Source: a bacterium (GTDB lineage Bacteria; Synergistota; GBS-1). From it: a stretch of DNA of 64,000 bases. Under the pieces are notes generated by a model. The model saw only the letters and a program-made list of their open reading frames with translations. It had not been told where the DNA came from and searched no databases. Location of the stretch: positions 216,896 to 280,895 of the forward strand of contig JASKLF010000001.1 in assembly GCA_030153785.1 (NCBI GenBank), read 5' to 3'. Both the position numbers and the translations under genes were made by a program. Every line of letters begins with the position of its first letter. Position 1 is the stretch's first letter. Of the stretch, positions 7,771 to 61,839 are shown piece by piece.

Positions 7771-8574
7771 TTAATCCCCAAGAGTTGCGTGGGCAAATTC
7801 TACTATCGATGATATCATCTCCTTTCTAAAATTCCCTCTCCTAAAACCCACGTATAAAAGAAACTCAATGTTACCTTCAGGCCCTTTTATGGGAGAAAAG
7901 GTCAGGTCCAATGGAAACAGTTCTAACTCCTCGTCAACGAAAGTAACTATTTCTTCTATGACTTCTATATGAACCCGCTTATCCCTGACAACGCCACCCT
8001 TGACTTTTTGACGCCCCGCTTCAAATTGAGGTTTAATAAGAACAACCCCTTCCGATTCTCCCTTTTTAAGAACCCTTTCAACCGGGGGTAAGACCTTCTT
8101 AACGGAAATAAAAGAAAGGTCCATTGCAAAGAAATCGACCTTTTCAGGGATAACTTTCTCATCCAAATATCTTGCATTAAAGCGCTCTATGGGCACCACC
8201 CTCGGGTTAATCCTCAAACTCCAGTGAAGCTGTCCATACCCGACATCCACAGCATAAACTTTAAAAGCTCCCTCTTTAAGCATACAATCGGTAAAGCCCC
8301 CTGTTGATGCCCCCACATCCAAGCAAATCTTATCTTTAAGGACTATCCCAAATTCATCTATCGCCTTCTTAAGCTTCAATCCTCCCCTGCTTACATAGGG
8401 ACAAACCTCTCCTTTAACCTCTATACTTGCATTCTCAGGGACCTTTTCCCCCGCTTTGTCTATCCTTCTTCCGTCAACAAAGACTATGCCAGCCATAAGG
8501 GCACGCTGAGCTTTCTCTCTGCTTTCGAAAAAGCCTCTCGTTACAAGTAGCTTATCGATTCTCTCTTTCCTCAA
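7771..8574 (-). CDS. tlyA: TlyA family rRNA 2'-O-methyltransferase (hemolysin A-like)
   Basis: It has an S4 domain (LLVTRGFFESREKAQRALMAGIV) and an FtsJ-like MTase domain (VDVGASTGGFTDCML). The probable TTG start is at 8574, with GAGGAG 10 nt upstream. The longer ORF reaching 8613 overlaps the dxs 3' end. Confidence 0.8.
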   Translation of the reverse strand: MRKERIDKLLVTRGFFESREKAQRALMAGIVFVDGRRIDKAGEKVPENASIEVKGEVCPYVSRGGLKLKKAIDEFGIVLKDKICLDVGASTGGFTDCMLKEGAFKVYAVDVGYGQLHWSLRINPRVVPIERFNARYLDEKVIPEKVDFFAMDLSFISVKKVLPPVERVLKKGESEGVVLIKPQFEAGRQKVKGGVVRDKRVHIEVIEEIVTFVDEELELFPLDLTFSPIKGPEGNIEFLLYVGFRRGNFRKEMISSIVEFAHATLGD

Positions 8575-42893: not shown

Positions 42894-43250
42894 ATGGCAG
42901 AACAATATCACGAGCCCGTAGATGAGCTCACGTCAAAGGATAGGGACTTTACAAGAGCACTTGTAAGTTTGAAAGAGGAAATCGAAGCAATAATGTGGTA
43001 TCAACAGAGAGCTTCCGCCACAAAAGACCAAGCCATAAGGGAGGTTCTTGAGCACAACAGAGATGAGGAAATGGAACACGCAGCCATGCTTCTTGAATGG
43101 CTTAGAAGGAATATGCCCGGTTGGGATAAAGCATTGAGAACCTACCTCTTCACCAGTGAACCGCTAACCCAGATAGAGGAAGAAGCTATGGGCGGAGAAG
43201 AATCCTCAAGCGGGGGAGATCTTGGCTTGAGAAAGATAAAAAGGGGGTGA
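42894..43250 (+). CDS. encapsulated ferritin-like protein (EncFtn/Flp) cargo with C-terminal encapsulin targeting peptide
   Basis: It has the ferritin-like four-helix motif (EEIEAIMWYQQRA...EHNRDEEMEHAAMLLEWLRR) and a C-terminal GGDLGLRKIKRG targeting peptide. It lies directly upstream of the shell gene. Confidence 0.85.
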   Translation: MAEQYHEPVDELTSKDRDFTRALVSLKEEIEAIMWYQQRASATKDQAIREVLEHNRDEEMEHAAMLLEWLRRNMPGWDKALRTYLFTSEPLTQIEEEAMGGEESSSGGDLGLRKIKRG

Positions 43251-43256
43251 AAGTTA

Positions 43257-44054
43257 ATGGATTTCCTAAGAAGGAACATATCTCCTCTTACCGCTAAACA
43301 GTGGGAAGAAATAGATAAAAGAGCCAAGGAAGTATTCTCAACGCAATTACATGGAAGAGCAGTGGTAGATGTTGTTGGACCTTTCGGTTGGGAATATGCT
43401 GCCCATCCCACAGGAGAGATAGAGCTACTTTCAAAGGAAGATGACGCTGTAAAATTCGGATTGAGAAAGGCTTTGCCTTTGGTAGAGCTAAAAAGCTACT
43501 TTTATCTTGACCTTAATGAGCTCGACAAGCTGGAGAGAGGACAGCCTGCTATAGACCTTTCGGCATTAGAGGAAGCAGTAAGAAACGTGGCAGTTTTTGA
43601 AGATGGAGCGATATTCGAAGGCTGTGAGCAATCTGGAATAAAAGGCTTCTTAGCTTACAAAGAAGAAAGAAGCATCCCTTCCTCCACCACAGAGGAAGAA
43701 TTCTTGGAAAGTCTCTACAAAGCGATGGCCAACTTTAGCCTCAACGGCATTAGCGGTCCCTATACCCTTGTTATAAACATAGACAAGTGGGTAGAAATTG
43801 TAAAGGCAAGTAAGCACTATCCTATACATAAGAAGGTAGAAGATATATTGAAAGGCGGTAAAGTCCTACTTACACCACGCATAAGCGACGGCCTTTTGGT
43901 TTCCGAAAGGGGCGGAGATTTCGAACTTATATTAGGTCAAGACCTATCTATAGGCTACGAAGCTACCGAAGGCTCAAAGGTAAAGCTGTTCATCACTGAA
44001 ACCTTCACCTTCCGAATAATTACCCCTGAAGCTCTTATCCACCTGAAGTTTTAA
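43257..44054 (+). CDS. family 1 encapsulin nanocompartment shell protein (HK97 fold)
   Basis: 265 aa. It reads [27 protein letters not shown]...[14 protein letters not shown]...[18 protein letters not shown]...ITETFTFRI...EALIHLKF. This closely resembles the T. maritima encapsulin. Confidence 0.9.
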
Positions 44055-46091: not shown

Positions 46092-46430
46092 TTGGCAATC
46101 CCCATATCAATCCTCGCAGGACTCTTAGGTGTGGGGCCCGGTTTCCTGCTTATGCCATCGCTCATACTTTTAAACTATGAACCAAAGAAAGCTGCCGGCA
46201 TAAACGCTTTTGCCGTTACACCTCCCTCCTTTTCTTCCTTAATTCCCCACTTAGGACACGCAAACTTAGATTTAACCCTGACAATCACGCTGACAGTAAT
46301 CGGCTCTTTAGGAGCCTTCTTGGGAGCGAGGTTAACCAGTCTGCATATACCCAGCTCAACTCTTAAAAAGCTCTTCGGCCTTCTTATAGTAATAATGACG
46401 GCTTACAAGCTATATAGCATGTTATTTTAA
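46092..46430 (+). CDS. TauE/SafE (DUF81) family half-size (4-TM) membrane protein
   Basis: It reads ILAGLLGVGPGFLLMPSLILL, which is a TauE repeat-unit motif, and the start is TTG. It is only 112 aa, against about 250 for the full family. Confidence 0.55.
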   Translation: MAIPISILAGLLGVGPGFLLMPSLILLNYEPKKAAGINAFAVTPPSFSSLIPHLGHANLDLTLTITLTVIGSLGAFLGARLTSLHIPSSTLKKLFGLLIVIMTAYKLYSMLF

Positions 46431-46454: not shown

Positions 46455-48306
46455 TTAAAATACAAACTTATTAATTAAATCCATAAGCTTGACAGAAGCC
46501 TCCTTTAGAGAAAGCCCTATTTCCCCTACACTTTTAACAAGCCCAGCTTGCCTATCTAAAAGCTCTTTTACCTTTCCCACATCTTTAGTTATGTCAGCTA
46601 CAGCCTGTGATACCGTACTCATAGGCTCGCTCAACGACTTCAAAGAAGAGCTCTGTCCTTTCGCAATTTCAGCAAGCTCCTCTCCAAGACTAACAACCTC
46701 TTCCACATTACTAAGAATCTTAGACAATTTTTGAGTGGCGAAGGCCGATTGATCAAAAGCTCTCTTTACAACCCCCTCCAGTACATCAATAGCTACACCT
46801 ACTCTTTGGGTTTCGCGCTCTATACTTAGCAAAACGGGAGCCACGCTCGATGTTAAAGACTTGCTCCTTTCGGCAAGCTTCTTTATCTCCTCAGCTACTA
46901 CAGCAAAACCTTTTCCCTTATCTTCTGCCCGCGCTGCCTCAATAGCCGCATTCAAAGCCAAAAGGCTTGTCTGCTCAGCGATGGAGTTTATCATTTCTAT
47001 AACCTTTCCAACATCTTTAACCCTATCAAGTAGTTCCCTCCCCGCCCCCTTTGTGGCACCCGTTTCATCCCATATTTCACAAACCACATCATCAACTATA
47101 CACAAAGCCTCTTTACCCTCCTTAGCCGCCATCTTTATATCTCCCGTCTTCGAAGTTAGCTTTACCGAAAGATTATAAACATTCTCAGCATCTAAAACCA
47201 GTTCCTCAAGCATCGAGTTTACCTTTAAAAGGAAGTCCCTAACTTTCTGACCAAAATCATCCATGCTTTCCATTTTTCCAAAAACTATCCTGCTTTTGTC
47301 TTCCAAAACTTCAGACATGCTCAAAAGTTCGCTACTTTCCTATAGACTTAGCAAGCGCGCTTATGGGAGAAGTTACGGAGGAAGTCACAACAAACAAGCT
47401 AATCCCTACAAAGAAAAGGATCAAAGGGAAAATTCCATTAAGGGTTATCATCAGTTTAGTAATTGGAACGAATAGTTGATCCTTATAAATAGAAAGACCG
47501 AAAGACCAACCCTTTGCTACCTTTATAGGATGGAAAAAGAGATATACTTCCTCCTTAGATGACCAATACTTGCCAAAACCTTTCTCTCCTTTTATCATCT
47601 TAACACCTAAACTTTCCAATCCCCTAAAATTAAACCCCTTCGGATTTAAAATGTTCAATCTGAGTGACATGTCCTCTTGAGTATGAGCTATCACAAGACC
47701 TGTAGAATCAACTATCCATGCAAAACCCTTGCCCCCCATGCTTATACCTCTCACGTAATCGTTAAGTCTTTCGATTAACACGTTAGCTCCGAAAACCCCT
47801 ATGAGCTTTCCGCTTTCATCTTTAACAGGAACAGCAATAACACAAACAGGATTCCCCGTTAAGGCAGAAACTACCACATCACTTATAACCGCCTGTTCTC
47901 CATTTAAAACTATCCTCTTAAAATAATCGTGGTTAGATAAATCCCTCGATATGCCCATGCTCGTAAACGCCATTCCATCCGGATAGGCTATGAAGAAGGC
48001 TTCGTAAAAATCCCTTTTAAACATAAAGCTCCGCAAACTCCTCTCCTTTAAAGCGCTAACAACTTCTTCGCTTTCAGATAGAGCTTTTACCTCCTTAAGC
48101 AACCCCTCGAACCACTCGCTGACCTTTTCAGCAGACTTAGCTGTTATTTCGGAAGCAACGTTCTCAACAAATGAAACCATATTCTCTTCCATTCGATATT
48201 TGAGGAAAAAGGCTCCAACCCCTATTATCACCAAAGTCGGGAGTAAAACATAGGCCAAAAATTTATATCTAATAGAGCTCAACATGTTTTCCTCTCCCCT
48301 CTCCAC
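46455..48306 (-). pseudogene. methyl-accepting chemotaxis protein (TM-Cache-TM-HAMP-MCP signalling domain) split by a +1 frameshift inside the HAMP domain
   Basis: The N-terminal fragment (47332..48306) has two TM segments and a periplasmic Cache-like domain and ends ...[11 protein letters not shown]. The C-terminal fragment (46455..47324) carries [34 protein letters not shown]. Removing one T at about 47335 (GGAAAG-T-AGCGAA) restores a continuous HAMP: ...[21 protein letters not shown].... Confidence 0.65.
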
Positions 48307-49136
48307 CTATACCGCAAATAAATTCCTATCGCGCTTATCGAAAGCACTAAAAGGAGCAGAACCAGAGCTGAGCCAAAAGCTATAGGAACCTGTTTTTCCG
48401 GCTTCGTTCCCTCCGTCATGAGACCGTATATAAGATAGGGAAGGGCCATTACTTCATCGAATATGGAAGTAGGAAGCCTCCGAGTATAAAAGGTAACAGC
48501 AGTAAACATTATAGGAGCTGTCTCGCCAGCGGCTCTTCCAAGAGTTAAGATGACGCCAGTTAAAATGTTTGGCATCGCCACAGGAAGCAGGACAAAGCCT
48601 ATCGTTCTCCACTTACTCGCACCAAGGGCATAAGCTGCCTCCCTTAAATCAAACGAAACGGCCTTTATGGATTCCTCGGTAACCTTAACTATCACAGGAA
48701 GAATAAGCAAAGATAATGTTAAAACACCAGAAATGATAGAAATCCCAAAACCAAAAGCGTTAACGAAAAGTGAAAGTCCAAAAAGCCCGAAAACAACGGA
48801 GGGAACGCCTGCCAAAGCGTTAACACAGCTTATTACCAAATCGGTAAGCCAGTTCCTCTTAGCAAATTCGCTAAGATAGATTCCAGAAAAGAGACCTAAA
48901 GGGAAGGCAATGAGGATAGAACCGAAAGAGAGATAAAAGCTTCCCAATATGGCTGGAAATATCCCCCCTTCCGTCATGCCTCGCCTTGGATTATCAAACA
49001 AAAAGGATAAGGAAAGAACCTTTCCTCCCTTCACGCATAAAACCAAGAGGAGTGAAAAGAGAAAGAGAATAACGAGCAAAATTAAAAGCCGTAAAATAAT
49101 CAAAACAAACTTCTCCTCCCAAATTAACCGCTTCAT
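48279..49136 (-). CDS. pstA: phosphate ABC transporter permease PstA
   Basis: 285 aa polytopic permease with an EAA-like loop (ALGASKWRTIGFVLLPVA). It lies downstream of pstC. Confidence 0.85.
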   Translation of the reverse strand: MKRLIWEEKFVLIILRLLILLVILFLFSLLLVLCVKGGKVLSLSFLFDNPRRGMTEGGIFPAILGSFYLSFGSILIAFPLGLFSGIYLSEFAKRNWLTDLVISCVNALAGVPSVVFGLFGLSLFVNAFGFGISIISGVLTLSLLILPVIVKVTEESIKAVSFDLREAAYALGASKWRTIGFVLLPVAMPNILTGVILTLGRAAGETAPIMFTAVTFYTRRLPTSIFDEVMALPYLIYGLMTEGTKPEKQVPIAFGSALVLLLLVLSISAIGIYLRYRWRGERKTC

Positions 49137-49993
49137 AGATAGGTCCTCCTCTTGCCAAATCTTTCGACAATGAAGTTTAATAATACGGTGATGAAAAACA
49201 AAATCATGCCTATCGCGAAGAGAGCATGATAGTGAAGACTCCCAAAAGGAGCCTCTCCCATCTCAGCCGCTATGGTGGCAGTCATCGTTCTAACAGGATC
49301 AAATATGGAAGAAGGTATCTGTGCAGCTCCTCCAGCTACCATCAGGACGGTCATCGTTTCCCCTATTGCCCTACCCATGCCAAGGAGTATACTTGAAAAT
49401 ACCCCTGACCACGCAGTGGGAATAACCACACACATAACCGTTCGCCATTTTGTTGCCCCCAAGGCATAAGAAGCTTCCAAGAGTTCACGAGGAACCATCG
49501 AAATTGCATCTTCAGCAACGCTTCCTACTAAAGGGACTATCATTATTCCGAGCACGATCGAAGCCGTAAAAGCGTTAAGCCCAACAGGTAGGGAAAATAG
49601 CTCCTTCACAGAGGGAGCAAGCACTACCATGCCGAAGAAGCCATAAACAACCGAAGGAATGGAAGCCAAAACCTCAAGAATGGGTTTAAGCGCATTTCTC
49701 AGCCTATGTGAGGAGAAGAAAGCCAAATATATGGCTGAAGCCAATCCAAGGGGAACACCTACCAAAAGGGCCCCTATGGTAACAACCGCGGTTCCAATAA
49801 CCAAGGGAAGCACACCGAACTCTGGAGGGCTATACGTGGGGCGCCAGCTTTTTCCAAGCAAAAACTTTAGAGGAGACACCTCTTTAAAGAGAGGTATCCC
49901 CTCTTTAACAAGCATCATCACTATCCCGAAAGTAGCAACTATCAATAAAAAGGCAGAGGCGTATATAAAGGCCTTTGCCACCCTTTCACCCAT
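49133..49993 (-). CDS. pstC: phosphate ABC transporter permease PstC
   Basis: 286 aa with the PstC pattern (ALGATKWRTVMCVVIPTA). Confidence 0.85.
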   Translation of the reverse strand: MGERVAKAFIYASAFLLIVATFGIVMMLVKEGIPLFKEVSPLKFLLGKSWRPTYSPPEFGVLPLVIGTAVVTIGALLVGVPLGLASAIYLAFFSSHRLRNALKPILEVLASIPSVVYGFFGMVVLAPSVKELFSLPVGLNAFTASIVLGIMIVPLVGSVAEDAISMVPRELLEASYALGATKWRTVMCVVIPTAWSGVFSSILLGMGRAIGETMTVLMVAGGAAQIPSSIFDPVRTMTATIAAEMGEAPFGSLHYHALFAIGMILFFITVLLNFIVERFGKRRTYL

Positions 49994-50000
49994 AAGCCAT

Positions 50001-50816
50001 CTACCTTACAGGGATGAATCCCTGTTCTTCAACTATTTTCTGCCCTTCAGGAGATAAAACAAAATCTATAAACTCTTTGACTAAACCCTTAGGCTCCCCA
50101 TTTGTATACATAAAAAGAGGCCTTGCAAGCTTATAGCTACCATCAACGACGGTTTCCTTAGAAGGTGCTATCCCGTCGATTTTCAGAGCCTTAACTTTTT
50201 GTGAAAGGTAACCCAAACCTATGTAACCAATAGCTCCCTCGGTTTGGACAACCGTGGTAGCTACAGCCTGATTAGAAGCCAAAAGCAAAGCATCTCCTCT
50301 AAGCTTTTCACCTTTCAAGACAAGCTCGTGAAACGTTTCATAAGTTCCAGAGGCACTATCCCTTGAAACGACGACTATTTTCATATCCCTACCTCCTACC
50401 TCTTTCCAATTATTGATCTTCCCCGTATAAATAGCCTTTAACTGCTCCAAAGTAAGCCCATTTATGGGATTAGAAGGATGAACCACAACAGCAATTCCAT
50501 CTTTAGCTATAACGTGAGCAACAGGGTTAACTCCCTTTTCTTTAGCCTTTCTTATTTCCCCCACCTTCATAGGCCTTGAAGCATTAGCTATGTCACAGGT
50601 TCCATCGATAAGCGCAGCTATACCAACGCCAGAACCTCCTCCCTTAACAGAAACGTTAACGTTGGGATTAAGGTCCATGAATTCCTCAGCACAGGCTTGG
50701 GCTATAGGAAGAACAGTTGTGGACCCTACCATACTAATATCCTTTGCCTGTGCCAACACGGCAGAGGCAATACTTAAGATTAGCAAGGGCACTAAAATCA
50801 TCTTGGAAAATCTCAT
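50001..50816 (-). CDS. pstS: phosphate ABC transporter substrate-binding protein PstS
   Basis: It has a signal peptide and the PstS motif (GSTTVLPIAQACAEEF...VKGGGSGVGIAALIDGTCDIANASRPMK). Confidence 0.85.
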   Translation of the reverse strand: MRFSKMILVPLLILSIASAVLAQAKDISMVGSTTVLPIAQACAEEFMDLNPNVNVSVKGGGSGVGIAALIDGTCDIANASRPMKVGEIRKAKEKGVNPVAHVIAKDGIAVVVHPSNPINGLTLEQLKAIYTGKINNWKEVGGRDMKIVVVSRDSASGTYETFHELVLKGEKLRGDALLLASNQAVATTVVQTEGAIGYIGLGYLSQKVKALKIDGIAPSKETVVDGSYKLARPLFMYTNGEPKGLVKEFIDFVLSPEGQKIVEEQGFIPVR

Positions 50817-50821
50817 AAAAG

Positions 50822-50873
50822 GATCCCCCCTTTATGAATTTTTTACTGACATGTTTCATTCTAAGGGGGGATC
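50822..50873 (-). promoter_or_regulatory. 11-bp perfect inverted repeat (GATCCCCCCTT / AAGGGGGGATC) in the pstS leader; one arm is the Shine-Dalgarno
   Basis: On the mRNA strand, GATCCCCCCTT lies 30 nt before AAGGGGGGATC-CTTTT-ATG. The loop contains TAGAAT, a possible -10, so this is either an SD-sequestering hairpin or a promoter-overlapping operator. Confidence 0.3.
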
Positions 50874-50930
50874 GTTAAAGGGAAATAAAAGGTTGATAAA
50901 GAAATCTTTAAAGAAGGAGAAAAACAAAAA

Positions 50931-50964
50931 GGGGCAACCCTGGCTAACCAGGGTTGCCCCTTTT
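50931..50964. terminator. rho-independent terminator (13-bp perfect stem) downstream of the dctP-family gene
   Basis: GGGGCAACCCTGG-ctaa-CCAGGGTTGCCCC followed by TTTT. An A-run precedes it, so it is bidirectional-capable. Confidence 0.6.
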
Positions 50965-50981
50965 GGGCTTACCGTTAGGCT

Positions 50982-52022
50982 TTACTGCTGACGAGGTATG
51001 CCGGACTCTTTGTAAATGAGATCCATAAGGGCCTTGCCACAAAGCTCCTCCATCTTGGGCCATACTACCTTTCTTACATGCTGAGCTATCTTATTAAGCT
51101 GTTCCTCTGTAAACGTAACGATCGTCCAGCCATACTCCTTTTGAAGCTTCTGACGATATTCCTCGTCAACCTGTTTTGCCCTTTCCCATTGGATCTTAGC
51201 CTCTTCTCTTGCCGCCTCCATCAGAACCTTCTGATCTTCAGGGGAGAGCTTATCCCATATACCCTTGTTTATAACAAACCACCAGGTTTCACAATAGTCA
51301 TTATATTGAATCCACACCTTCTGAACATCGCGGAACTGCCAACCCTGATACGGTGGCCCACCCATCTGCCCATCAGCTACACCCATCTGAAGAGCGGTAT
51401 AAACCTCGGCGTAAGGAATAGGAGTTGCAATGTAACCTAACGCCTCATAGGTCCATTCACAAGGCTTGATCGGCATAACGCGAACCTTCATTCCCTTTTT
51501 AACGGTGGGATCCTCAGGGCTTGGCGGCATCTCTCTCAAGGAAACACCGCTCATACCAATAGGAACAACATCCAAAGCCTTTATATTGTGCTTTTCCCAA
51601 AGTTTTTGTATAACCTTGTAGGCCCATCCAGTCGGACTGTAAACCTTAACGGCATCTTCAAAGGTCGTAAATATGTAAGGGAAGTAGTAAGCCAAGTTAA
51701 GCTCAGGATCAAAATTGGCGTTAGCCTGCTGTAAGGCCACCTCAATGGTTCCACGCATTACCATCTCAAAGATCTGGGTCCAGTCCCCCAACACTCCACC
51801 TGAATAAACATCGATCTTAATCCTTCCATTGGTTCTTTCGAAGACCTTTCTCGCAAATTCTTTGGCACGAATGTCATAGTCACTATCTACAGGGTGAATC
51901 TGTGACATACGCCAATGATATTGCGGCTGCTGCTGTTGAGCTAAAACGGGTAGAGCTATCAAAGCCATACATAAGACCGCTAAAAGAAATAGAACCCCTC
52001 CCTTTAGAACCTTCTTACCCAC
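50982..52022 (-). CDS. TRAP transporter substrate-binding protein (DctP family)
   Basis: 346 aa with a signal peptide and DctP-fold sequence. Confidence 0.8.
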   Translation of the reverse strand: MGKKVLKGGVLFLLAVLCMALIALPVLAQQQQPQYHWRMSQIHPVDSDYDIRAKEFARKVFERTNGRIKIDVYSGGVLGDWTQIFEMVMRGTIEVALQQANANFDPELNLAYYFPYIFTTFEDAVKVYSPTGWAYKVIQKLWEKHNIKALDVVPIGMSGVSLREMPPSPEDPTVKKGMKVRVMPIKPCEWTYEALGYIATPIPYAEVYTALQMGVADGQMGGPPYQGWQFRDVQKVWIQYNDYCETWWFVINKGIWDKLSPEDQKVLMEAAREEAKIQWERAKQVDEEYRQKLQKEYGWTIVTFTEEQLNKIAQHVRKVVWPKMEELCGKALMDLIYKESGIPRQQ

Positions 52023-52310
52023 TTTAAACCACCTCCCACTATGGTATTCGTATCTATGATAGATTTTAACACATCTAAATAAAATGAGGCAAGCAAAAAT
52101 ACGCCAGATTTAGGTAAAACACTTGTAAAAGTGATATCTCAGATTTAGAACCGAACGCAAATCTATATCTTTATATAGCACAATTTCATTCTTTTTATGA
52201 AACTCAAGGCTTGAAAAAATCCAATCTCTGAGCTATCATGAATTGCAACCTAAAGATGTCATTAAAACAGTGTAAAAATCACAAACTTGCTATCTTAAGG
52301 AGGGGGGATA

Positions 52311-53595
52311 ATGAAGCTCAGCACTATGGGGGACCTTAAGCCTTTTGGCCCCATTTACGAAAACGCTCAAAAGCAATTTCTAAAAGCAACCGATATCATG
52401 GACCTTGACCCAAATCTTGGAAACTTTTTGCTTTAGCCACAAAGAGTATTAGAAGTGCACTTTCCAGTAGTAATGGACGACGGAAGGGTAGAGATATTTA
52501 AGGGGTATGGGGTTCAACACAACACCGCAAGAGGACCGGCGAAAGGAGGAATTAGATATCATCCAGATACACACCTTGACGAGGTTGCAGCCTTAGCCTT
52601 CTGGATGACATGGAAATGTGCAGTTATGAACCTACCCTATGGTGGGGGCAAGGGAGGAGTAAGGGTTGATCCTTCAAAACTTTCGGAGCGGGAACTTGAA
52701 AGATTAAGCAGACGATATTTCTCGGAGATTCAGATCATAATCGGTCCACATAAAGATATTCCAGCCCCCGATGTAAATACGAATCCAAAAATAATGGCAT
52801 GGTATATGGATACGTACAGCATGAACGTGGGCTACACAAGCTTAGGAGTCGTCACGGGGAAACCTCTCGACCTCGGAGGGTCGGAAGGTAGACCAGAGGC
52901 AACTGGGCGCGGGATATCCATAATAGCAAACGAGGCCTGCAAAAAGTTAGGTAAGGAGATCTCAAAAGCGAGAGTAGCAGTTCAAGGATTTGGCAACGTG
53001 GGTTCCCATTCAGCAAAGATACTAAGCGAAGAATATAAAGCAAAGGTGGTAGCAGTAAGCGATATAAGCGGTGGGATTTACGATGAGAAAGGAATTGACA
53101 TAAACGATCTGATAGCATACAGAGACAGTAATAAAGGACTAATAAAAGGACATCCAAAGGGAGAACCCATATCAAACAAAGAGCTATTAGAACTTGATGT
53201 GGACAATACTCATACCTGCAGCTTTGGAAAATGCAATTACTGAGAAAAACGCCAATGACATAAAAGCCAAAATAATAATAGAGGGAGCAAACGGCCCTAT
53301 AACACAGGAGGCAGAAGAAATACTTTTAAGAAATGGAATTTTTATCGTTCCCGATATCCTCGCAAACGCTGGAGGAGTTGTAGTATCCTATTTTGAGTGG
53401 GTGCAAGATCTACAGACATTTTTCTGGGATATTGAGGATATAAGAAAGAGACTAACCAAAATGATGCTAAGTGCCTTCGTGGAAGTTGGTAAAGCAAAAG
53501 AAAAATACGATACCGACATGAGAACAGCCGCATACATAGTTGCGATTGAAAGAGTGGCAAATGCCCTTAAACAAAGGGGCTACTACCCAATGTAA
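52311..53595 (+). pseudogene. gdhA: NAD(P)-dependent glutamate dehydrogenase carrying an in-frame TAG (52434-52436) and a +1 frameshift (about 53205)
   Basis: The GDH motifs are highly conserved (GGIRYHPD...[15 protein letters not shown]...QGFGNVG...EGANGP). The N-terminus reads ...[22 protein letters not shown], where consensus has K/R/E in place of the stop. The ORFs 52455..53243 and 53194..53595 rejoin if one A is deleted in GTGGACAATACT. Confidence 0.7.
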
Positions 53596-53605
53596 AGAAC
53601 CTTAA

Positions 53606-53637
53606 AAAGCCCCTGGGTTTAGTGTCCCAGGGGCTTT
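53606..53637. terminator. bidirectional terminator between convergent gdhA and dctM
   Basis: AGCCCCTGGG-tttagtgt-CCCAGGGGCT forms a 10-bp stem. It is flanked by A-rich and T-rich runs. Confidence 0.55.
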
Positions 53638-53639
53638 CT

Positions 53640-54944
53640 CTATTTAATCCCCAAAACTACTCTTGGAAGCCACATTGAAAGCTCAGGCACATAGGTAGTC
53701 AAAGCTATTATGGGAAGATTTCCAAATATCATGAATATTAGAGCTGGCTTCACATATTGATCGAAGGAAACCTTACCAACCCTTCCCCCAAGATAAAGGA
53801 TGGGAGCGGTAGGGGGAGTAACATTACCCAAGCCGAGATTGGTTCCCAGGATAGCCGCAAAGTGCACGGGATGAACCCCTATACGAACAGCTAAGGGAAG
53901 AAGAAGAGGAGCAACGAGCAAGGTTCCACTCAGGTCATCCATTAACATACCGATTATTATCAGGAAAACGTTAATCATAAATAGAATTACATACTTATTG
54001 TCAGATATGGAGATAAGAAAATCAGCAATCCTCATAGGAACCCTTTCCATGGTGTATATCCTGCCAAGGATTGTAACAAAGAAAAGCATCAAAACCACAA
54101 CACTGCTTGTGGTAGCAGCCGTATAAAGAGACCTAAAGAAGGTTTTAAAGGTGAGCTCTTTATGAACGAAAAATCCCACTATTATCGCATAAGTAACGGC
54201 AACCGCAGCAGCCTCCGTAGGCGTCGTAACACCACCATAAATGCCACCCAAGATTATGACAGGCATAAGAAGACTCCATATACTTCGTCTTGTGGCACGA
54301 CCTATTATTCTTATTTTTTCGAAACCTGGAGCAGGAGGCTCAACCTCCACAGAAGGGAAGTATCTCTTAACCATTATGTAGTTAATTATTGAATATAAAG
54401 TTGCAGTTAGCACACCTGGAACAACCGTGGAGAGGAAGCACGCGGTGATAGAAGTTTGTGTAACCCAACCGTAAAGTATCATGGGAACGCTCGGAGGTAT
54501 TAGCTGGCCCAAAATCGCAGCACAACTGACCATAGCAGTGGTATAGTACCTGGGATAACCTCTTTCTTCAAGTTTGGGAATCATAATAGTTCCTATAGCA
54601 GCAACGGCAGAGGAAGCTGTTCCAGAAATTGCTCCAAATATGGCACACGCCCAAATGGTGGCAGCGCCCAAGCCTCCTCTCATTCTACCCAAGAGAGCTT
54701 CAGCAAAAATAACAAGCCTTTCAGCTATTCCGCTTGATCCCATAAGCATACCAGCCATTATAAAAAAGGGAATAGACAAAAGAGTAATGGAGTTGAGAGC
54801 CTTAAACCCAACGCTCGCTAAGAAAGATAGGTCAGGAAAAGATACCATCGCCATATATAATGCCGCCGCCATAAAAGCAAAGGGGACCGGAACCCCAATA
54901 GACAAGCTCGTTATAAGAATAAGGATGTCAATAATAATATGCAT
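53640..54944 (-). CDS. dctM: TRAP transporter large permease DctM
   Basis: 434 aa, 12-TM DctM pattern. Confidence 0.85.
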   Translation of the reverse strand: MHIIIDILILITSLSIGVPVPFAFMAAALYMAMVSFPDLSFLASVGFKALNSITLLSIPFFIMAGMLMGSSGIAERLVIFAEALLGRMRGGLGAATIWACAIFGAISGTASSAVAAIGTIMIPKLEERGYPRYYTTAMVSCAAILGQLIPPSVPMILYGWVTQTSITACFLSTVVPGVLTATLYSIINYIMVKRYFPSVEVEPPAPGFEKIRIIGRATRRSIWSLLMPVIILGGIYGGVTTPTEAAAVAVTYAIIVGFFVHKELTFKTFFRSLYTAATTSSVVVLMLFFVTILGRIYTMERVPMRIADFLISISDNKYVILFMINVFLIIIGMLMDDLSGTLLVAPLLLPLAVRIGVHPVHFAAILGTNLGLGNVTPPTAPILYLGGRVGKVSFDQYVKPALIFMIFGNLPIIALTTYVPELSMWLPRVVLGIK

Positions 54945-54960
54945 AAGACCAACCTCCCCT

Positions 54961-55500
54961 TTAGCTTTGTTCGGTCTCTAAAGAAACATCCTTTTCTCTT
55001 TTAACCGTTATCTCCTTTTTGCCTAAAAGCTGAAGAGTGTAGTCCACCATCTCAACGAAAGTATAAAAGGCCATTAAAAACGCAGATATTAACATTGCAA
55101 CTTGAGCGTAAATCAGCGGAATTCTCAAAGAGGGCGTATATTCCGGAATCTTCAAAGCCCAAGTTACATACCCCCATGCCCAATCAAGGAAAACTATGGT
55201 CATAATGAAAGTGAAAATGGTTATACCGAGCTTGATCTTCAAAAAGCCTCTTGGACTTTTAACGATGGCATTCAAAACATCAGCCATTATGTGGCTTCTC
55301 TCCCGAGAAGCGTGCGCAGCACCCATGAAGTAAAGCCAACATCCAACGAGGGTTGCAAGCTCCTCAATTCCCATTAAAGGACGAGCAAAAACATATCTTA
55401 ATATAACCTCCGCCATAACAAGGAAGGTGACGGTTAAGGAAACCACCACCAAAACAGTTTGCTCCGCCCTCTCAAGGAATTTCCAAATAAATAGACCCAT
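54961..55500 (-). CDS. dctQ: TRAP transporter small permease DctQ
   Basis: 179 aa, 4-TM, located upstream of dctM. Confidence 0.8.
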   Translation of the reverse strand: MGLFIWKFLERAEQTVLVVVSLTVTFLVMAEVILRYVFARPLMGIEELATLVGCWLYFMGAAHASRERSHIMADVLNAIVKSPRGFLKIKLGITIFTFIMTIVFLDWAWGYVTWALKIPEYTPSLRIPLIYAQVAMLISAFLMAFYTFVEMVDYTLQLLGKKEITVKREKDVSLETEQS

Positions 55501-55605
55501 CCCTCCTACCTCCCATCTCTCTTATAGCATAAAGGAAGCATATGTGTAACCAAATCTAAAAGCCATTATACCAAAAAACAATAGAGGAGACAAAGTTTTC
55601 GAAAG

Positions 55606-56889
55606 TCACTTTGGGAAAATTAATGTAAACTTGCTACCCTTACCCAATTCGCTTTCTACTTCAACAATTCCCCCATGCAAGGAGACTATTTCTTTAACAA
55701 TGCTTAATCCCAGTCCCACTCCTCCTACCCTCTTAGAGCGGGATTTATCAACCACATAAAACTTCTCAAAAATATACGGTATATGTTCTTTGGGAATACC
55801 TATCCCCGTATCTTCAATCACGACCTTTACCCCGTCTTCAAGCTCTTGAGCTCTAATTGTAACGCTTCCGCCATCTACGTTATAATTTATAGCGTTATCA
55901 AGCAAATTCAAAAGGGCGCTTTCAATAAGCGCCCTTTCTCCCATCATAATCAGGTCTTCTTGAGACAACCTCACATCTATACGAATCCTTTTCCTCTTCG
56001 CCTTCTCTTCTACAATAGGTAGAAGGCCAGAAAGAAGCTCGCTTAATTTTATGGATTCTTTAGATATCCTCCTTCTTTTCAACCCTTGAAGGGCAAGAAT
56101 TTTAGAAACTACATCATTCAGCCTTTCTGCATTCCTAACTATAAGAGAAAGCAGCTTATTCTCTCCGATTTCTCCCTCCAAAGTTTCAGCCGCTCCCTTC
56201 ATAGCGGCAAGGGGAGTCTTTATTTCATGAGCTATGCTCGATATCAACTCTGACTCTCTTTCTTCCAATTGCACTTCCTGCGTAATCTCCTTAAGGACCA
56301 CTAAAATCTTCCCTCCAGAGAATACTCCCTTCCCCAAGAAAATTCTATTACCAAAGGATATCTTAAAACTATCCGCTTTCCCTTTATCCTTAATTACATC
56401 AAAAAACTCCAAGAGGTCTTTGTTATTAGAAAACTGCCAGTACCATTTCCCCTTAACCTTTCTACCATCACTCTCTCCAAAAAGTGAAAGAAAAGGAGAA
56501 TTAGCCTCTATTAACCTTCCAATCTCATCAAAGAAGGCAACAGGGACCTCCACAAGACAAAGCAACCCGCTAAGCCTTTCTTTATATTCAAAGCTCCCTT
56601 TAGACAAAAGTTCAAGGTAACGGGCAAGCTCGTTAAGTTCACCAACCGCCTTTCCCACTTCATCATTGCTATCTACAAAAGCCCTAATCCTATAATCTCC
56701 CACCTTTAAGCGGGAAAGAAGATAACCGAGGTATTTAATCCTGACCTCAACTCTATGAACGAGAAGATAAAAAAGGAAGGGTATAGATATTAAACAGCAA
56801 AACCTCAACCAGAGGGAGTCTACACTGAAGGAGATAAGAAGGAAGAAAACAGAAAAAACCAAGAAAATGAGCTTATCCCTAAAGCTCAA
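55606..56889 (-). CDS. sensor histidine kinase (PhoR-like: 2 TM + PAS + HisKA + HATPase)
   Basis: It has an H-box (SSIAHEIKTPLAAMKGAAETL) and an N/G1/G2 ATPase box (GGVGLGLSIVKEIVSLHGG). Confidence 0.85.
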   Translation of the reverse strand: MSFRDKLIFLVFSVFFLLISFSVDSLWLRFCCLISIPFLFYLLVHRVEVRIKYLGYLLSRLKVGDYRIRAFVDSNDEVGKAVGELNELARYLELLSKGSFEYKERLSGLLCLVEVPVAFFDEIGRLIEANSPFLSLFGESDGRKVKGKWYWQFSNNKDLLEFFDVIKDKGKADSFKISFGNRIFLGKGVFSGGKILVVLKEITQEVQLEERESELISSIAHEIKTPLAAMKGAAETLEGEIGENKLLSLIVRNAERLNDVVSKILALQGLKRRRISKESIKLSELLSGLLPIVEEKAKRKRIRIDVRLSQEDLIMMGERALIESALLNLLDNAINYNVDGGSVTIRAQELEDGVKVVIEDTGIGIPKEHIPYIFEKFYVVDKSRSKRVGGVGLGLSIVKEIVSLHGGIVEVESELGKGSKFTLIFPK

Positions 56890-57559
56890 ACTTGTAACCT
56901 ACCCCACGGACAGACCTAATCAAACTACCAAATCTTCCAAGTTTTCTTCTTAATCCGCTCACGTGAACATCAATAGTCCTATCGACCACGAATCTTCCTC
57001 CCCAAAACCTTTCAAGAAGCTCCTCTCTTGAAAAAACCTTACCCGGATTCTGAACAAATATGGAAAGGAGTCTAAACTCAACAGGAGTTAGGTCTATCTT
57101 TTCTCCCTCCAAAAGAGCCTCCATCTTTTCAAGGTCTACGAGAATCGGCCCCGCTTTTAGCATTGCAGTCCTTTCTTCCCTTAAACCCGACCTTCTAAGT
57201 AAGGCCCTAACCCGAGCCACAAGCTCTCGAGGGCTAAAGGGTTTGGTAAGATAATCATCAGCACCAAGCTCCAGTCCGACAACCTTATCGGTTTCAGAGT
57301 CCTTAACGCTTAAGAACAACACCGGTATACGAGAAAACCTGTAATTGTTTTTTAGGAACCTACATATCTCCAATCCATCAACGCCGGGCAAAAGAATATC
57401 CAGAATAACAAGGTCAGGATAAAAGTTATCAAGGGAAGACAAAAAGCTCTCTCCATCATTGAAAACCCTAACCTCGAAATTTTCCTTAACCAGATTATAA
57501 GATACAAGCTCGGCAATATCCTCTTCATCCTCGACTATTGCTATAACCCTTTTTACCAT
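56879..57559 (-). CDS. OmpR/PhoB family response regulator
   Basis: It has a receiver domain (DDYLTKPF) plus a winged-helix trans_reg_C domain (RVDVHVSGLRRKL...GVGYKF). Confidence 0.9.
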   Translation of the reverse strand: MVKRVIAIVEDEEDIAELVSYNLVKENFEVRVFNDGESFLSSLDNFYPDLVILDILLPGVDGLEICRFLKNNYRFSRIPVLFLSVKDSETDKVVGLELGADDYLTKPFSPRELVARVRALLRRSGLREERTAMLKAGPILVDLEKMEALLEGEKIDLTPVEFRLLSIFVQNPGKVFSREELLERFWGGRFVVDRTIDVHVSGLRRKLGRFGSLIRSVRGVGYKFEL

Positions 57560-57563
57560 CCTG

Positions 57564-58871
57564 CTAATGCTCCTTCATCACAAACCTTAAAGGAGTTCCC
57601 TCAAAACCAAAGGTTTCCCTCAATCTGTTCTCCAAGTAAGAGAGATAGCTTTTCTTCAACAATTCCTTAGAGTTAATAGAAAGTTCAAAAAGGGGTGGAG
57701 CCTCTCCTTTCTGAGAAACGAAGTATATCTTTAATTTTCTTCCCCTCCTGTCCGATGGAGGAGGAGAAAAATAAAGGGCTTCCCTTATAGCCCTGTTAAG
57801 CTGAGAGGTAGGAACCCTCATCCTCCAATTGGCATAAACCCTATCTATGGCTGGAAAAATCTCTTCAACGTTATAGCCAGTCTTAGCTGATATAAATAAA
57901 ACAGGAGCGTAGTTCACGAAGTAAAACTCCTTCATAAGAAAATCTTTAAAAAGGTTAGGGTCAAAACCAGGCAAGAGATCCACCTTATTAACAGCTATAA
58001 TTATGGCTCTCCCCCTTTCCTCTATCATCCCAGCTATCCTTTTATCCTGCATCGTTGCCGGCTCAAGGGCGTCAAGCACAAGGATAGCTACATCACTTTT
58101 CTCCAAAGACCTGATACACCTCAAAGTGCTATAGTATTCTACACTTTCCTTAATCCTCGACTTTCTGCGAAGACCAGCAGTATCGATAAAAAGATAATCT
58201 CTTCCCTTGTATCTAACAAGGCTATCTACAGAATCCCTTGTAGTTCCGGGCTTTTCACTAACCAACGCCCTTTCCTCGCCAGCAAAAAGATTGAGCAAAG
58301 AAGATTTCCCAACATTAGGCCTTCCTACAATAGTAACCCTTATTACGCCTTCATCTATCTTTTCCTCCTCTTCCTCGGGCAAAACAGAGATAACCTTATC
58401 GAGAAGTTCATCTAGATTTCGTTTGGATTCAGCAGATACGGGAATAACATCCTCTATCCCAAGTGCATAAAAATCCGATACAAGCTTCTCATGTTTAGCT
58501 TCATCTATCTTATTAACTACGAGAATTACCTTCTTATTCATTCTTCTCACAACTTCGGCTATCTCTTCATCGGCCGGTAAAAGTCCGCTTCTTCCATCAA
58601 CGACAAGAAGAATTAGATCAGCCTCTTTCATTGCCCTCAAAACCTGTTCCCTAACCCCTTCCCATATGGGGTCTTTTTCACCGGAAACGAAACCTCCCGT
58701 ATCAACCAACCAAAACTTCCTACCCACCCACTCCCCAATCCCATATATCCTGTCACGGGTAATACCGGGCACATCAGCCACGATAGCCTTTCTTTGCCCT
58801 ATTATCCTGTTAAACAAGGTAGATTTACCCACATTAGGCCTTCCAACTATGGCGACAACCGGCAAAGACAT
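57564..58871 (-). CDS. der: ribosome-associated GTPase Der/EngA
   Basis: It has two tandem G domains (GRPNVGKSTLFN and GRPNVGKSSLLN) plus a KH-like C-terminus. Confidence 0.9.
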   Translation of the reverse strand: MSLPVVAIVGRPNVGKSTLFNRIIGQRKAIVADVPGITRDRIYGIGEWVGRKFWLVDTGGFVSGEKDPIWEGVREQVLRAMKEADLILLVVDGRSGLLPADEEIAEVVRRMNKKVILVVNKIDEAKHEKLVSDFYALGIEDVIPVSAESKRNLDELLDKVISVLPEEEEEKIDEGVIRVTIVGRPNVGKSSLLNLFAGEERALVSEKPGTTRDSVDSLVRYKGRDYLFIDTAGLRRKSRIKESVEYYSTLRCIRSLEKSDVAILVLDALEPATMQDKRIAGMIEERGRAIIIAVNKVDLLPGFDPNLFKDFLMKEFYFVNYAPVLFISAKTGYNVEEIFPAIDRVYANWRMRVPTSQLNRAIREALYFSPPPSDRRGRKLKIYFVSQKGEAPPLFELSINSKELLKKSYLSYLENRLRETFGFEGTPLRFVMKEH

Positions 58872-58877
58872 CTTAAG

Positions 58878-60656
58878 CTACACCTCCACAGGGTCAATAA
58901 CCAAAGAAAGCCCGTCGGAAACTTTAATCTTGCCATCCTCTAAAAACTTCCAAAGCTCTTCCTGGAGCTTTCCCTTTTTGCCTTTGATCACCAAAGATAG
59001 AGAAATTTTCCCGCCACCCACAAACTTCTTGATAGGCCCTAAAACTTCCAAAGAAGAACCTTCTTCAATTTGCTCCTTAATATATTTTATCTTCTTTCTC
59101 AAAGAAACTTCCTTCTTCCCCTCAACGGAAATCAGAGCCATAGAATACAACGGCGGATAACGAAGTTCCTCTCTCTTTTTCAATTCTTCCTGAAAGAATC
59201 TCTTCCACGAGCCCTCCACAAAAACTTTAAAAACAGGATGCTCGGGAACGTAGGTCTGAATAAAAATCTCCTTAGGAGAAAAATCGGCAACCGAGTAAAT
59301 CAATCTCAAAGTATCCTCCTCTCCTCTATAACTGGGCACGTATAAAGATATGTCCGCCAACACGATGCAAGCTAAAGAAACATCTTTCATCAATTTAGGT
59401 TGAAGGACAGCCTGAGTGCCAAGAATAACCAAAGAAACCTCTTTATCCTCTTTTTTCTCTGCATCCCAAACTTCTACGCTTTCTCCAAGCTTTTCCTCCA
59501 ATAGAAGTTTGGCTTGCTCTATTCCAGGAGACCCTACCTTGAAGAAAATCCCTCCACAGTTAAAGCACTTGTCAAAAAAGGGCTTCTCATAACCACAATA
59601 AGAACATCTCAGTTTGTTTCCATCCCTGTGAAAAGACAAAGGAACATCACAATTGGGACATTTAGGAACATAACCACATTCACCGCATTTTAAATAAGAA
59701 GCATAGGCCTTTCTGTTTAACAAAAGAACACTTCTTCTCCTATTTTTCAAATTAGCTTTAACCTTGTTAAACACAGAGAGCGATAAAAGGGCCTTCTTCT
59801 TACTCCTCCTCAGGTCAACCACAACAAGCTTCGGAGATTTGTAAGGAAGCTCTTCAAGCTCCCAACCCTCGCTTAGTTTTACATAAGCTTCAAGGCTGGG
59901 GAATAAGCCCCCCAAAATTACAGAAAAGCTTTCGATCCTCCTTCTTAAAAGAACCGCCTCCCTAGAGTGGATATAAGGAGGTGAAAGTCTTCTTAAGTAA
60001 GGGCTTCCCTCATCATCCACAATTACAAGCCCCAAGTCCCTTACAGGAAGAAAGGCCAAAGAAGAAGTTCCCACAAAAAGGGCTTTCCCCTCTCTCCTCG
60101 CAGCTTCCCAAGCCTTCTTCCTTTCCCCTCTTTTCATCTCGCTGAACCAAAGATAGGTCTCTTCAAAAGATAACCTTGAGGCCCAATCCTCCACATCCTC
60201 AACCTGAGGCACAACAAGTAGCACCTTTTCTCCCCTCTTAAAAAACTCGGAAATAATATCTTTATAAAAAGCGAATCGAGATTCTCTCAGCCCCACAACT
60301 ACTTTATTAAACACGTCACTTTCTGCATATCTGAGCCCCAGCTCGCCGAAGGAGGGAAGATAGTTATACGGGAAAAGAAGCTTCAGAGTCATCCCAAGGG
60401 GATAACAATACTCAAAGGAAAGTAACCTGGCAAATGCTAAGAAAGAAGATGGTAACGGAGGAACATCGTCAATGATTTCCTTGATCGTTTTAAGACCAGA
60501 AGGCTCTCCCTTCCTGGCAGATAATACCCATCCTTTCGAAACGCTTTTACCCACAGGAACCTTAACCCTTAAGCCAACATCAACCTTACGGGGAGAAAAA
60601 TAAGAAAGGCAATAAAACAACGGCCGCTCAATAGCAACGTCCAATACGTATCCCAT
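58878..60656 (-). CDS. priA: primosomal protein N' (PriA)-like with intact Zn-binding CxxC clusters but degenerate Walker A/B
   Basis: It has a 3'BD-like N-terminus. The position equivalent to GVTGSGKT reads GLRESRFA, and DEEH reads DDEG. CGECGYVPKCPNCD...CSYCGY...CFNCGG is intact. Confidence 0.7.
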   Translation of the reverse strand: MGYVLDVAIERPLFYCLSYFSPRKVDVGLRVKVPVGKSVSKGWVLSARKGEPSGLKTIKEIIDDVPPLPSSFLAFARLLSFEYCYPLGMTLKLLFPYNYLPSFGELGLRYAESDVFNKVVVGLRESRFAFYKDIISEFFKRGEKVLLVVPQVEDVEDWASRLSFEETYLWFSEMKRGERKKAWEAARREGKALFVGTSSLAFLPVRDLGLVIVDDEGSPYLRRLSPPYIHSREAVLLRRRIESFSVILGGLFPSLEAYVKLSEGWELEELPYKSPKLVVVDLRRSKKKALLSLSVFNKVKANLKNRRRSVLLLNRKAYASYLKCGECGYVPKCPNCDVPLSFHRDGNKLRCSYCGYEKPFFDKCFNCGGIFFKVGSPGIEQAKLLLEEKLGESVEVWDAEKKEDKEVSLVILGTQAVLQPKLMKDVSLACIVLADISLYVPSYRGEEDTLRLIYSVADFSPKEIFIQTYVPEHPVFKVFVEGSWKRFFQEELKKREELRYPPLYSMALISVEGKKEVSLRKKIKYIKEQIEEGSSLEVLGPIKKFVGGGKISLSLVIKGKKGKLQEELWKFLEDGKIKVSDGLSLVIDPVEV

Positions 60657-61839
60657 TGGCCTCTTTAAGTATCTCCTCTGCTACCTTCTTCTTGTGAAGC
60701 CTTGGCAAAAACCGCACAGCTCCCGATGGATATACAAATGCAACTTCGTTCTCTTCTCCTCCAAAACCTACACTTGCCTCATTCACCACGATAAAATCGG
60801 CACCCTTTTCCTTAAGTTTCTTATAAGCATTCTTAAATATATCTTCCGTCTCAAGGGCGAAACCCACCAATACCTGTTCCTGTCTCTTTCTTCTTCCAAG
60901 CTCGAGGAGGATATCAGGGTTTTTAGCAAGCTCTATCGTAAGCTGAGATAGCCCCTCCTTTTTTATCTTTGAAGAAGATGTAAAGGAAGGTTTAAAATCT
61001 GAAACTGCAGCAGACTTAACCGTTATGTGGGCTTCCGGGAAAAGCTCCAAAACCGTATCGAACATCTCGGAAGTCGTTTCCACTTTATATAACTTAACTC
61101 CCACGGGTGGAGCGAGATTGACAGGCCCACTTACCAAATCTACATGAGCTCCCATCAAGCTTGCTACATAAGCAACTGAATAGCCCATCTTCCCACTTGA
61201 CGGATTTGAGATATACCTTACAGGATCTATCCATTCTCTCGTTGGGCCTGCAGTAACCAAAACCCTTAAGCCAGAAAGAGATTTAGGCTGATAAATGGCC
61301 TTTTCAGCCATATAAAAGGCTACCTGAGGATCAACAAGTCTTCCTCTTCCCGTCTCACCACACGCCAAAAAACCTTCCTCAGGTTCAATTATTACAGCCT
61401 CATCTTTTATCAGCTTTAAAGCCCTCCTTAAGCCTGCACTCTCATACATACGCCAGTTCATCGCCGGTGCGATTATCTTCGGCCCCTTAAAGGCCATGTA
61501 AACCGTTTCAAGAAGGCCATCGGCTCTGCCAAAAGCAACGGAGGATATAAAATCGGCAGAAGCAGGGTAAACTATCAGGAGGTCTGCCCACGATGCAAGG
61601 TCTATGTGGGGAACTCCTCCAGCAAAATACTCGTAAGGAGAATAAACTTTCTGAGCGAAGGGAGAAAAAGAAAGGGGAGTAATAAACTCCATTGCCCCCT
61701 CGCTCAGAACGACGCGGACATTTGCTCCTCCATCTTGAAAGAGCCTTAAAAGCTCTACACCCTTATAGGCCGATATACTACCTGTAACACCAAGAACTAT
61801 ATTCTTTCCTTGGAGAAAGCTTTTGAAGGCAACTCCCAC
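60628..61839 (-). CDS. coaBC: bifunctional phosphopantothenoylcysteine decarboxylase/phosphopantothenate-cysteine ligase
   Basis: It has an N-terminal flavoprotein domain (ILGVTGSISAYKG) and a C-terminal CoaB domain (TAGPTREWIDPVRYISNPSSGKMG). Confidence 0.9.
   Translation of the reverse strand: MGVAFKSFLQGKNIVLGVTGSISAYKGVELLRLFQDGGANVRVVLSEGAMEFITPLSFSPFAQKVYSPYEYFAGGVPHIDLASWADLLIVYPASADFISSVAFGRADGLLETVYMAFKGPKIIAPAMNWRMYESAGLRRALKLIKDEAVIIEPEEGFLACGETGRGRLVDPQVAFYMAEKAIYQPKSLSGLRVLVTAGPTREWIDPVRYISNPSSGKMGYSVAYVASLMGAHVDLVSGPVNLAPPVGVKLYKVETTSEMFDTVLELFPEAHITVKSAAVSDFKPSFTSSSKIKKEGLSQLTIELAKNPDILLELGRRKRQEQVLVGFALETEDIFKNAYKKLKEKGADFIVVNEASVGFGGEENEVAFVYPSGAVRFLPRLHKKKVAEEILKEANGIRIGRCY

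Follow-up and report, generated by a model that had tools for sequence, protein, structure and literature searches.

In Bacillus subtilis 168, the glutamate dehydrogenase gene gudB is cryptic, i.e., the gene and its expression signals are retained and the product is inactive. The inactivation is due to an in-frame 9-bp duplication that readily reverts under selection. Another closely related system is the glutamate dehydrogenase (GDH) of Thermotoga maritima (PDB 1B26 and 2TMG). Here, we describe a gdh locus that can be compared with both. It is found in a Synergistota-like genome, in a stretch of 64,000 nucleotides (64 kb) that was analysed as a whole and is referred to as the window. The repaired window product shares with the T. 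maritima enzyme a full-length alignment, two Pfam domains and both of the motifs described below, and it is 80–85% identical to the enzymes of Fervidobacterium. In contrast to the gdh genes of Thermotoga, Fervidobacterium and Thermosipho, the window copy contains a stop codon, a frameshift and an R67G change in the otherwise invariant GYRVQHN segment. As in gudB, the gene is retained with its expression signals, as far as these can be predicted, and the product would be inactive. Unlike in gudB, the lesions are independent and number two or three, which makes simple reversion unrealistic.

We are highly confident that the locus is a unitary pseudogene that derives from a hexameric Thermotoga-type GDH gene, and that the loss is real, recent and still followed by decay. 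A pseudogene is an ordinary phenomenon, here in an otherwise intact stretch of a genome, and it bears on no open question. The locus does provide a view of stepwise gene loss in progress, as the gene is intact in sister species, two lesions are fixed and a third is found in part of a near-clonal population. In GenBank, the fragments have entries of their own as "glutamate dehydrogenase" (MDK2870932, MDK2870933 and KUK23358), and metabolic reconstructions would therefore wrongly credit the uncultured thermophile with GDH activity.

Anatomy of the interrupted gene

The gdh frame extends from the ATG at 52311–52313 to the TAA at 53593–53595 and is broken at two places. The first-pass annotation of this DNA had reported an in-frame TAG and a 1-bp frameshift in the gene, and both can be read directly from the sequence. 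The parts of the gene, in window positions, are:

52311–52436, plus strand: gdh segment 1, codons 1–41 and the premature TAG (from the sequence; the 41-aa ORF is also called in independent assemblies)
52437–53205, plus strand: gdh segment 2, codons 43–298 in the original frame, with the dimerisation domain, the GGGKGG catalytic-Lys motif and GFGNVG
52509–52511, plus strand: private R67G change, inside gdh segment 2
53205–53206, plus strand: lesion 2, one-base insertion (AA, where the orthologues have A, in GAC-A-ATA; from the alignment with orthologues)
53206–53595, plus strand: gdh segment 3, codons 299–427 in the +1 frame, with the remaining NAD(P)-binding domain, the C-terminal helix and the natural stop TAA at 53593–53595
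53399, plus strand: polymorphic site; the window has G, five other assemblies have A and thereby TAG in place of Trp363 (TGG, in YFEWVQD)

From the start codon, the frame encodes MKLSTMGDLKPFGPIYENAQKQFLKATDIMDLDPNLGNFLL before it reaches the first lesion, the in-frame TAG of codon 42 at 52434–52436. After the TAG the GDH frame resumes and continues up to ...ELLELDVD. The second lesion is one surplus A at 53205/53206, in codon 299. It breaks the frame at GTGGACAATACTC (53199–53211), where the GDH sequence passes to the +1 frame, while the original frame, shifted by the extra A, stops at the TGA at 53241–53243. When one A of the AA at 53205–53206 is removed in silico, an ORF of 427 codons reaches the TAA at the end of the gene.

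The repaired product of 427 residues aligns from residue 13 to 426 with residues 4–416 of T. maritima GDH 1B26 (E = 8e-184). Both Pfam domains of the family are found in the repaired translation, ELFV_dehydrog_N with 198.9 bits (cut-off 25.3, profile positions 1–128 of 129) and ELFV_dehydrog with 283.7 bits (cut-off 23.4, profile positions 1–241 of 241). The NCBIfam archaeal-type GdhA model gives 617 bits, which is below its equivalog cut-off of 750. The catalytic-Lys motif GGGKGG and the dinucleotide-binding motif GFGNVG (GxGxxG) are both kept. With these matches, the interrupted gene cannot be a coincidence of the sequence. An uninterrupted frame for the whole GDH subunit is not present, given the TAG at codon 42 and the +1 insertion at codon 299. 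Judged from its sequence, the region is a relic of the Glu/Leu/Phe/Val dehydrogenase family, of the hexameric ~47-kDa GDH type, and not a working member of it.

Apart from the two lesions, the gene had been described as near-perfect. This is correct for the two motifs, which are intact, but not for the protein as a whole, as four positions that do not vary among 120 homologues have private substitutions: A27T, R67G (in GYRVQHN), Y281H and K341N. At the codon level, R67G is a change from AGG/AGA to GGG.

Ancestral states in sister species

The nearest intact proteins are P0001, P0002 and P0003, with 90%, 89% and 87% identity, respectively. P0001 is found on Logan contigs (sister A) and P0002 in GCA_026414785.1 (contig JAOAII010000002, "Synergistetes bacterium"; sister B), and both sisters, at 89–90% amino-acid identity, have an uninterrupted 427-aa gdh. 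The gene order gdh, dctM-dctQ, histidine kinase, response regulator, der, priA, coaBC is common to the window and to the P0002 and P0001 contigs. Upstream of gdh, dctP is confirmed in the P0002 contig only, as the P0001 contigs end ~212 nt before gdh. P0001 and P0002 represent true orthologues, each in a sister species. These species are themselves fairly distant, with 68–69% identity for PriA and 78–80% for Der.

The DNA alignment with eight intact orthologues reveals the ancestral state at both lesions. The eight agree on TGG (Trp) for codon 42, and close homologues all read ...GNFLLWPQR... around this codon. The first-pass annotation had expected K, R or E here, and this has to be corrected to Trp. 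At the shift site, the eight orthologues have GAC-ATx, i.e., no extra A, while the window has GAC-AAT-A. Since the orthologues have TGG and GAC-ATx, lesion 1 is a G-to-A transition and lesion 2 is a one-base insertion.

The lesions in other assemblies

The lesions recur outside the window. The same truncated gdh fragments are found in eight further assemblies (seven from Logan and one from JGI) and in a separate GenBank protein entry; the sources are SRR23823824, SRR26201534, SRR11866716, SRR1977357, SRR29026315, SRR29026316, JGI 3300010240 and GenBank KUK23358.1. By exact look-up, the 262-aa fragment is found on seven contigs and a 256-aa version on five, the latter in SRR11866716, SRR1977357, SRR29026315, SRR29026316 and the JGI metagenome 3300010240. 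The flanking dctM protein is likewise retrieved by exact look-up on several contigs of independent Logan assemblies. GenBank contains the fragment twice, as MDK2870932.1 from the MAG of the window itself and as KUK23358.1 from another MAG, whose label is Thermotoga petrophila. The frameshift tail ends KUK23358.1 (P0141), and the same tail is found in P0140.

Compared base by base, the DNA of the matching loci is 99.9–100% identical to the window. The extra A is present in every compared locus, and the TAG in every locus that covers codon 42. A third lesion, G-to-A at 53399, converts Trp363 from TGG to TAG in five of the seven other assemblies and marks a derived haplotype. At least three haplotypes can be distinguished: (i) the window type, (ii) a type with C-to-T at 54347, which is E200K in dctM, and (iii) a type that adds G-to-A at 53399.

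The population is very uniform, with four variable sites (50957, 53399, 54347 and 59754) over 3–13 kb in eight assemblies. In this comparison, window positions 47640–60944 were set against loci L081–L083 and L090–L094, and the run accessions are far apart in number. Of these sites, 53399 and 54347 have transitions, G-to-A and C-to-T.

Two readings of the lesions had been offered at the outset, recent pseudogenisation or two sequence errors. If the lesions were sequencing or assembly errors, gdh would be intact in the organism. The source is a MAG, and the insertion extends an A run from one base to two, an error type of some platforms, both of which would fit such an artefact. However, sequence errors are excluded because the exact truncated products recur in other assemblies (seven Logan and one JGI) and in the separate GenBank entry KUK23358.1, and they do so over three SNP haplotypes. 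Further, the change from TGG to TAG is a substitution and not a homopolymer error, and the other 60-odd ORFs of the window are intact. We put the chance of an artefact close to nil. At least one of the Logan assemblies possibly comes from the same reads as the MAG of the window, so the eight are not all fully independent; the three distinct haplotypes, however, are. The sampled copies are nearly clonal, and the shared lesions thus prove that the lesions are real and tell little about their age. Of the two readings, pseudogenisation is supported, and a recent date agrees with the relative-rate tests below, which detect no significant acceleration, and with the retained promoter-like site, Shine-Dalgarno sequence and terminator-like hairpin.

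General decay or poor sequence quality of the window was also considered and rejected. The window is 95.5% coding, and the ten large ORFs tested give full-length Pfam matches.

Among 5.8 billion protein clusters, an intact allele of the window species is absent, and the best full-length match is 90% identical. JGI metagenome contigs were scanned twice with DNA patterns that accepted either allele at each lesion; both scans returned zero matches and are uninformative on intact alleles. A scan of a genome collection, from which the window species and its sisters are apparently missing or masked, gave no match closer than 85%.

A model for the inactivation

Very probably, gdh was disabled in this species by two point mutations that arose independently: (i) Trp42 changed from TGG to an amber codon and (ii) one base was inserted in codon 299, in the NAD(P)-binding domain. 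Both lesions are found in every sampled copy, and part of the population has later gained a second Trp-to-amber change, at codon 363. The nonsense change at 53399 is common and lies within the remaining frame, which is expected once selection lapses. Translation from the native start would give only a peptide of 41 residues, and an active enzyme would not be expected.

Could the pieces still form a working enzyme? A product of 262 residues, starting at the GTG at 52455, and one of 132 residues, starting at the ATG at 53197, would have to combine into an active GDH. Each fragment opens with a potential start codon and is annotated by gene callers as a glutamate dehydrogenase of its own. However, the longer fragment is without the first 48 residues, and the break interrupts a Rossmann-fold strand (DVD/ILIPAA). 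The second fragment is in addition cut by the further stop in five of the seven other assemblies, and the 120 closest homologues are all single-chain proteins of about 416–458 aa. A split enzyme is therefore very improbable, and loss of function by point lesions is the preferred reading.

Use of TAG and recoding

TAG ends 13 of the 64 window ORFs. Among these, dctM, der and a PstS-family gene have the same length as their sister orthologues, while priA and the response regulator end within 1–2 residues of theirs. It had been proposed before that TAG is a genuine stop in the window and that codon reassignment is unlikely, and the 13 ORFs and their lengths agree with this.

A full-length GDH could also be produced by recoding, i.e., by readthrough of the UAG (through a suppressor tRNA, pyrrolysine or Trp decoding) together with a +1 shift at codon 299. 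In favour of this, the two nonsense changes of the population each convert a Trp codon from TGG to TAG, a change that would be tolerable with a Trp-inserting amber suppressor, and a promoter-like site and a Shine-Dalgarno sequence are still present. However, TAG acts as an ordinary stop, with five of the ORFs ending at or near the lengths in the sisters, and a TGG codon can become a stop in a single step only via G-to-A, so that chance could readily give TAG twice (roughly 1 in 4 for two such events). None of the orthologues has either interruption. The only tRNA within the 64-kb window is a tRNA-Pro(CGG), and at GAC-AAT-ACT a reading of the sequence found no slippery run, no in-frame or stimulatory stop and no known +1 frameshift motif. 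Recoding into a full-length enzyme is thus very unlikely.

A broader possibility is that the lineage has a Trp-inserting amber suppressor or some other mechanism that reads UAG, in which case gdh or its fragments might keep some function. The sole hint of this is that Trp-to-amber changes recur in one gene. Reading of UAG is strongly disfavoured by the frameshift and by the normal use of TAG stops, and we consider it extremely unlikely.

Expression signals and flanking genes

In contrast to the coding part, the signals around gdh are predicted to be intact. They are listed here together with the neighbouring genes:

52211–52239, plus strand: promoter-like site TTGAAA-17 nt-TATCAT upstream of gdh (from a consensus scan; putative function)
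52299–52303, plus strand: Shine-Dalgarno GGAGG, 7 nt before the ATG (from the sequence and alignment)
53604–53639, no strand assigned: two-way terminator-like hairpin between the convergent gdh and dctM
50982–52022, minus strand: dctP, TRAP transporter substrate-binding protein, intact, transcribed away from gdh
53640–54944, minus strand: dctM, TRAP permease subunit, intact, length equal to that in the sister species
54961–55500, minus strand: dctQ, TRAP permease subunit, intact, length equal to that in the sister species

About 200 nt upstream of gdh can be aligned across all three species, and the promoter-like hexamers are near-identical in sister A (L086) and sister B (L084). Loss of the promoter as the cause of the inactivation was rejected, since these hexamers are conserved in all three. 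Relative to the sisters, the window has a 7-nt deletion between the Shine-Dalgarno sequence and the ATG. With its expression signals predicted to be intact, the gdh locus may still be transcribed.

In sister A, contigs from four separate runs (L086, L087, L088 and L089) all end ~212 nt upstream of gdh, at the palindrome CCCTCCAGGGTTAACCCTGGAGGG. This common end suggests that the assemblies break at a hairpin there, or that the junction varies between strains. In sister B (L084, positions 8080–9811), ortA-ortB, encoding the 2-amino-4-oxopentanoate thiolase of ornithine fermentation, is located between dctP and gdh, and both genes match NCBIfam equivalogs with scores above the cut-offs. No trace of ortA-ortB was found within the 64-kb window, including the corresponding interval 52023–52281. 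Deletion of ortA-ortB was set aside as a further lesion of the window, as only sister B has the genes, the sister A contigs break, and the Thermotogota loci are without them; the difference may be a deletion in the window or an insertion in sister B.

Age of the loss

On the window branch, dN/dS is not computable, as synonymous sites are saturated relative to the sisters (~79% nucleotide identity, NG86 pS 0.75). The non-synonymous distances (dN) of gdh are 0.058 and 0.066 between the window and the sisters and 0.028 between the two sisters. Dividing dN from window to sisters by dN between the sisters gives 2.22 for gdh, the top value among eight genes of the locus, and 1.21–1.83 for the seven flanking genes. 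This ratio, the four private substitutions at invariant positions and the common third nonsense change are hints of relaxed constraint. Tajima relative-rate tests count 18–22 changes unique to the window and 12–17 unique to a sister, which is not significant (p = 0.12–1.0). The amino-acid acceleration on the gdh lineage of the window is at most modest and non-significant.

As the relative-rate tests are not significant, it appears that gdh was constrained for nearly all of the history of its lineage and died recently. These rates argue that the loss is recent relative to the split from the sister species.

Host and origin of the gene

For the methionyl-tRNA synthetase of the window, the nearest named relatives are Thermosynergistes, Thermovirga and Aminobacterium, all of them Synergistota, at 57–62% identity, and the GenBank labels on relatives are "Synergistota bacterium" or "bacterium 42_11". 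From this, the host looks like a deep-branching member of Synergistota. In a neighbour-joining tree, in which the deeper nodes are poorly supported, gdh instead groups with Fervidobacterium and Thermosipho. The surroundings also differ: the window gdh is found at a TRAP-transporter locus, while the gdh loci of Thermotogota are without TRAP neighbours.

The 80–85% identity of gdh to Fervidobacterium and its different neighbours, set against the 57–62% of the methionyl-tRNA synthetase to Synergistota, point to horizontal transfer. Probably, gdh alone was acquired by the ancestor of a small clade from a Fervidobacterium-like member of Thermotogota. This suggests transfer between thermophiles that share a habitat. 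Such an acquisition would fit a dispensable accessory gene, where the first-pass annotation had seen a central nitrogen-assimilation enzyme; probably, what has been lost is an acquired accessory gdh.

Other features of the window

A chemoreceptor gene on the minus strand, at 46455–48306, also looks split. It consists of a dCache sensor ORF (47332–48306), which ends at a TAG just past the second membrane segment, and an MCP signalling ORF (46455–47324) in a different frame. The sensor ORF matches residues 2–323 of proteins of 620–690 aa, and the signalling ORF matches residues 413–625 of the best one. The sensor matches come from an exhaustive protein search; a word-index protein search gave no scored matches. 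About 50 residues, the HAMP region, are apparently lost between the two ORFs. The split chemoreceptor is probably a second disrupted gene.

A half-length ORF of the TauE/SafE sulfite exporter family (112 aa, 46092–46430, plus strand) covers Pfam profile positions 8–109 of 237 and looks like the remnant of a truncated gene. At this position, sister B is without both the TauE/SafE remnant and the split chemoreceptor, and its rhodanese gene is directly followed by an ABC permease. Finally, a gene pair at 42894–44054 on the plus strand is predicted, by its position relative to the annotated locus of sister B (L084), to encode an EncFtn-like encapsulated ferritin and the shell protein of an encapsulin (Linocin_M18).
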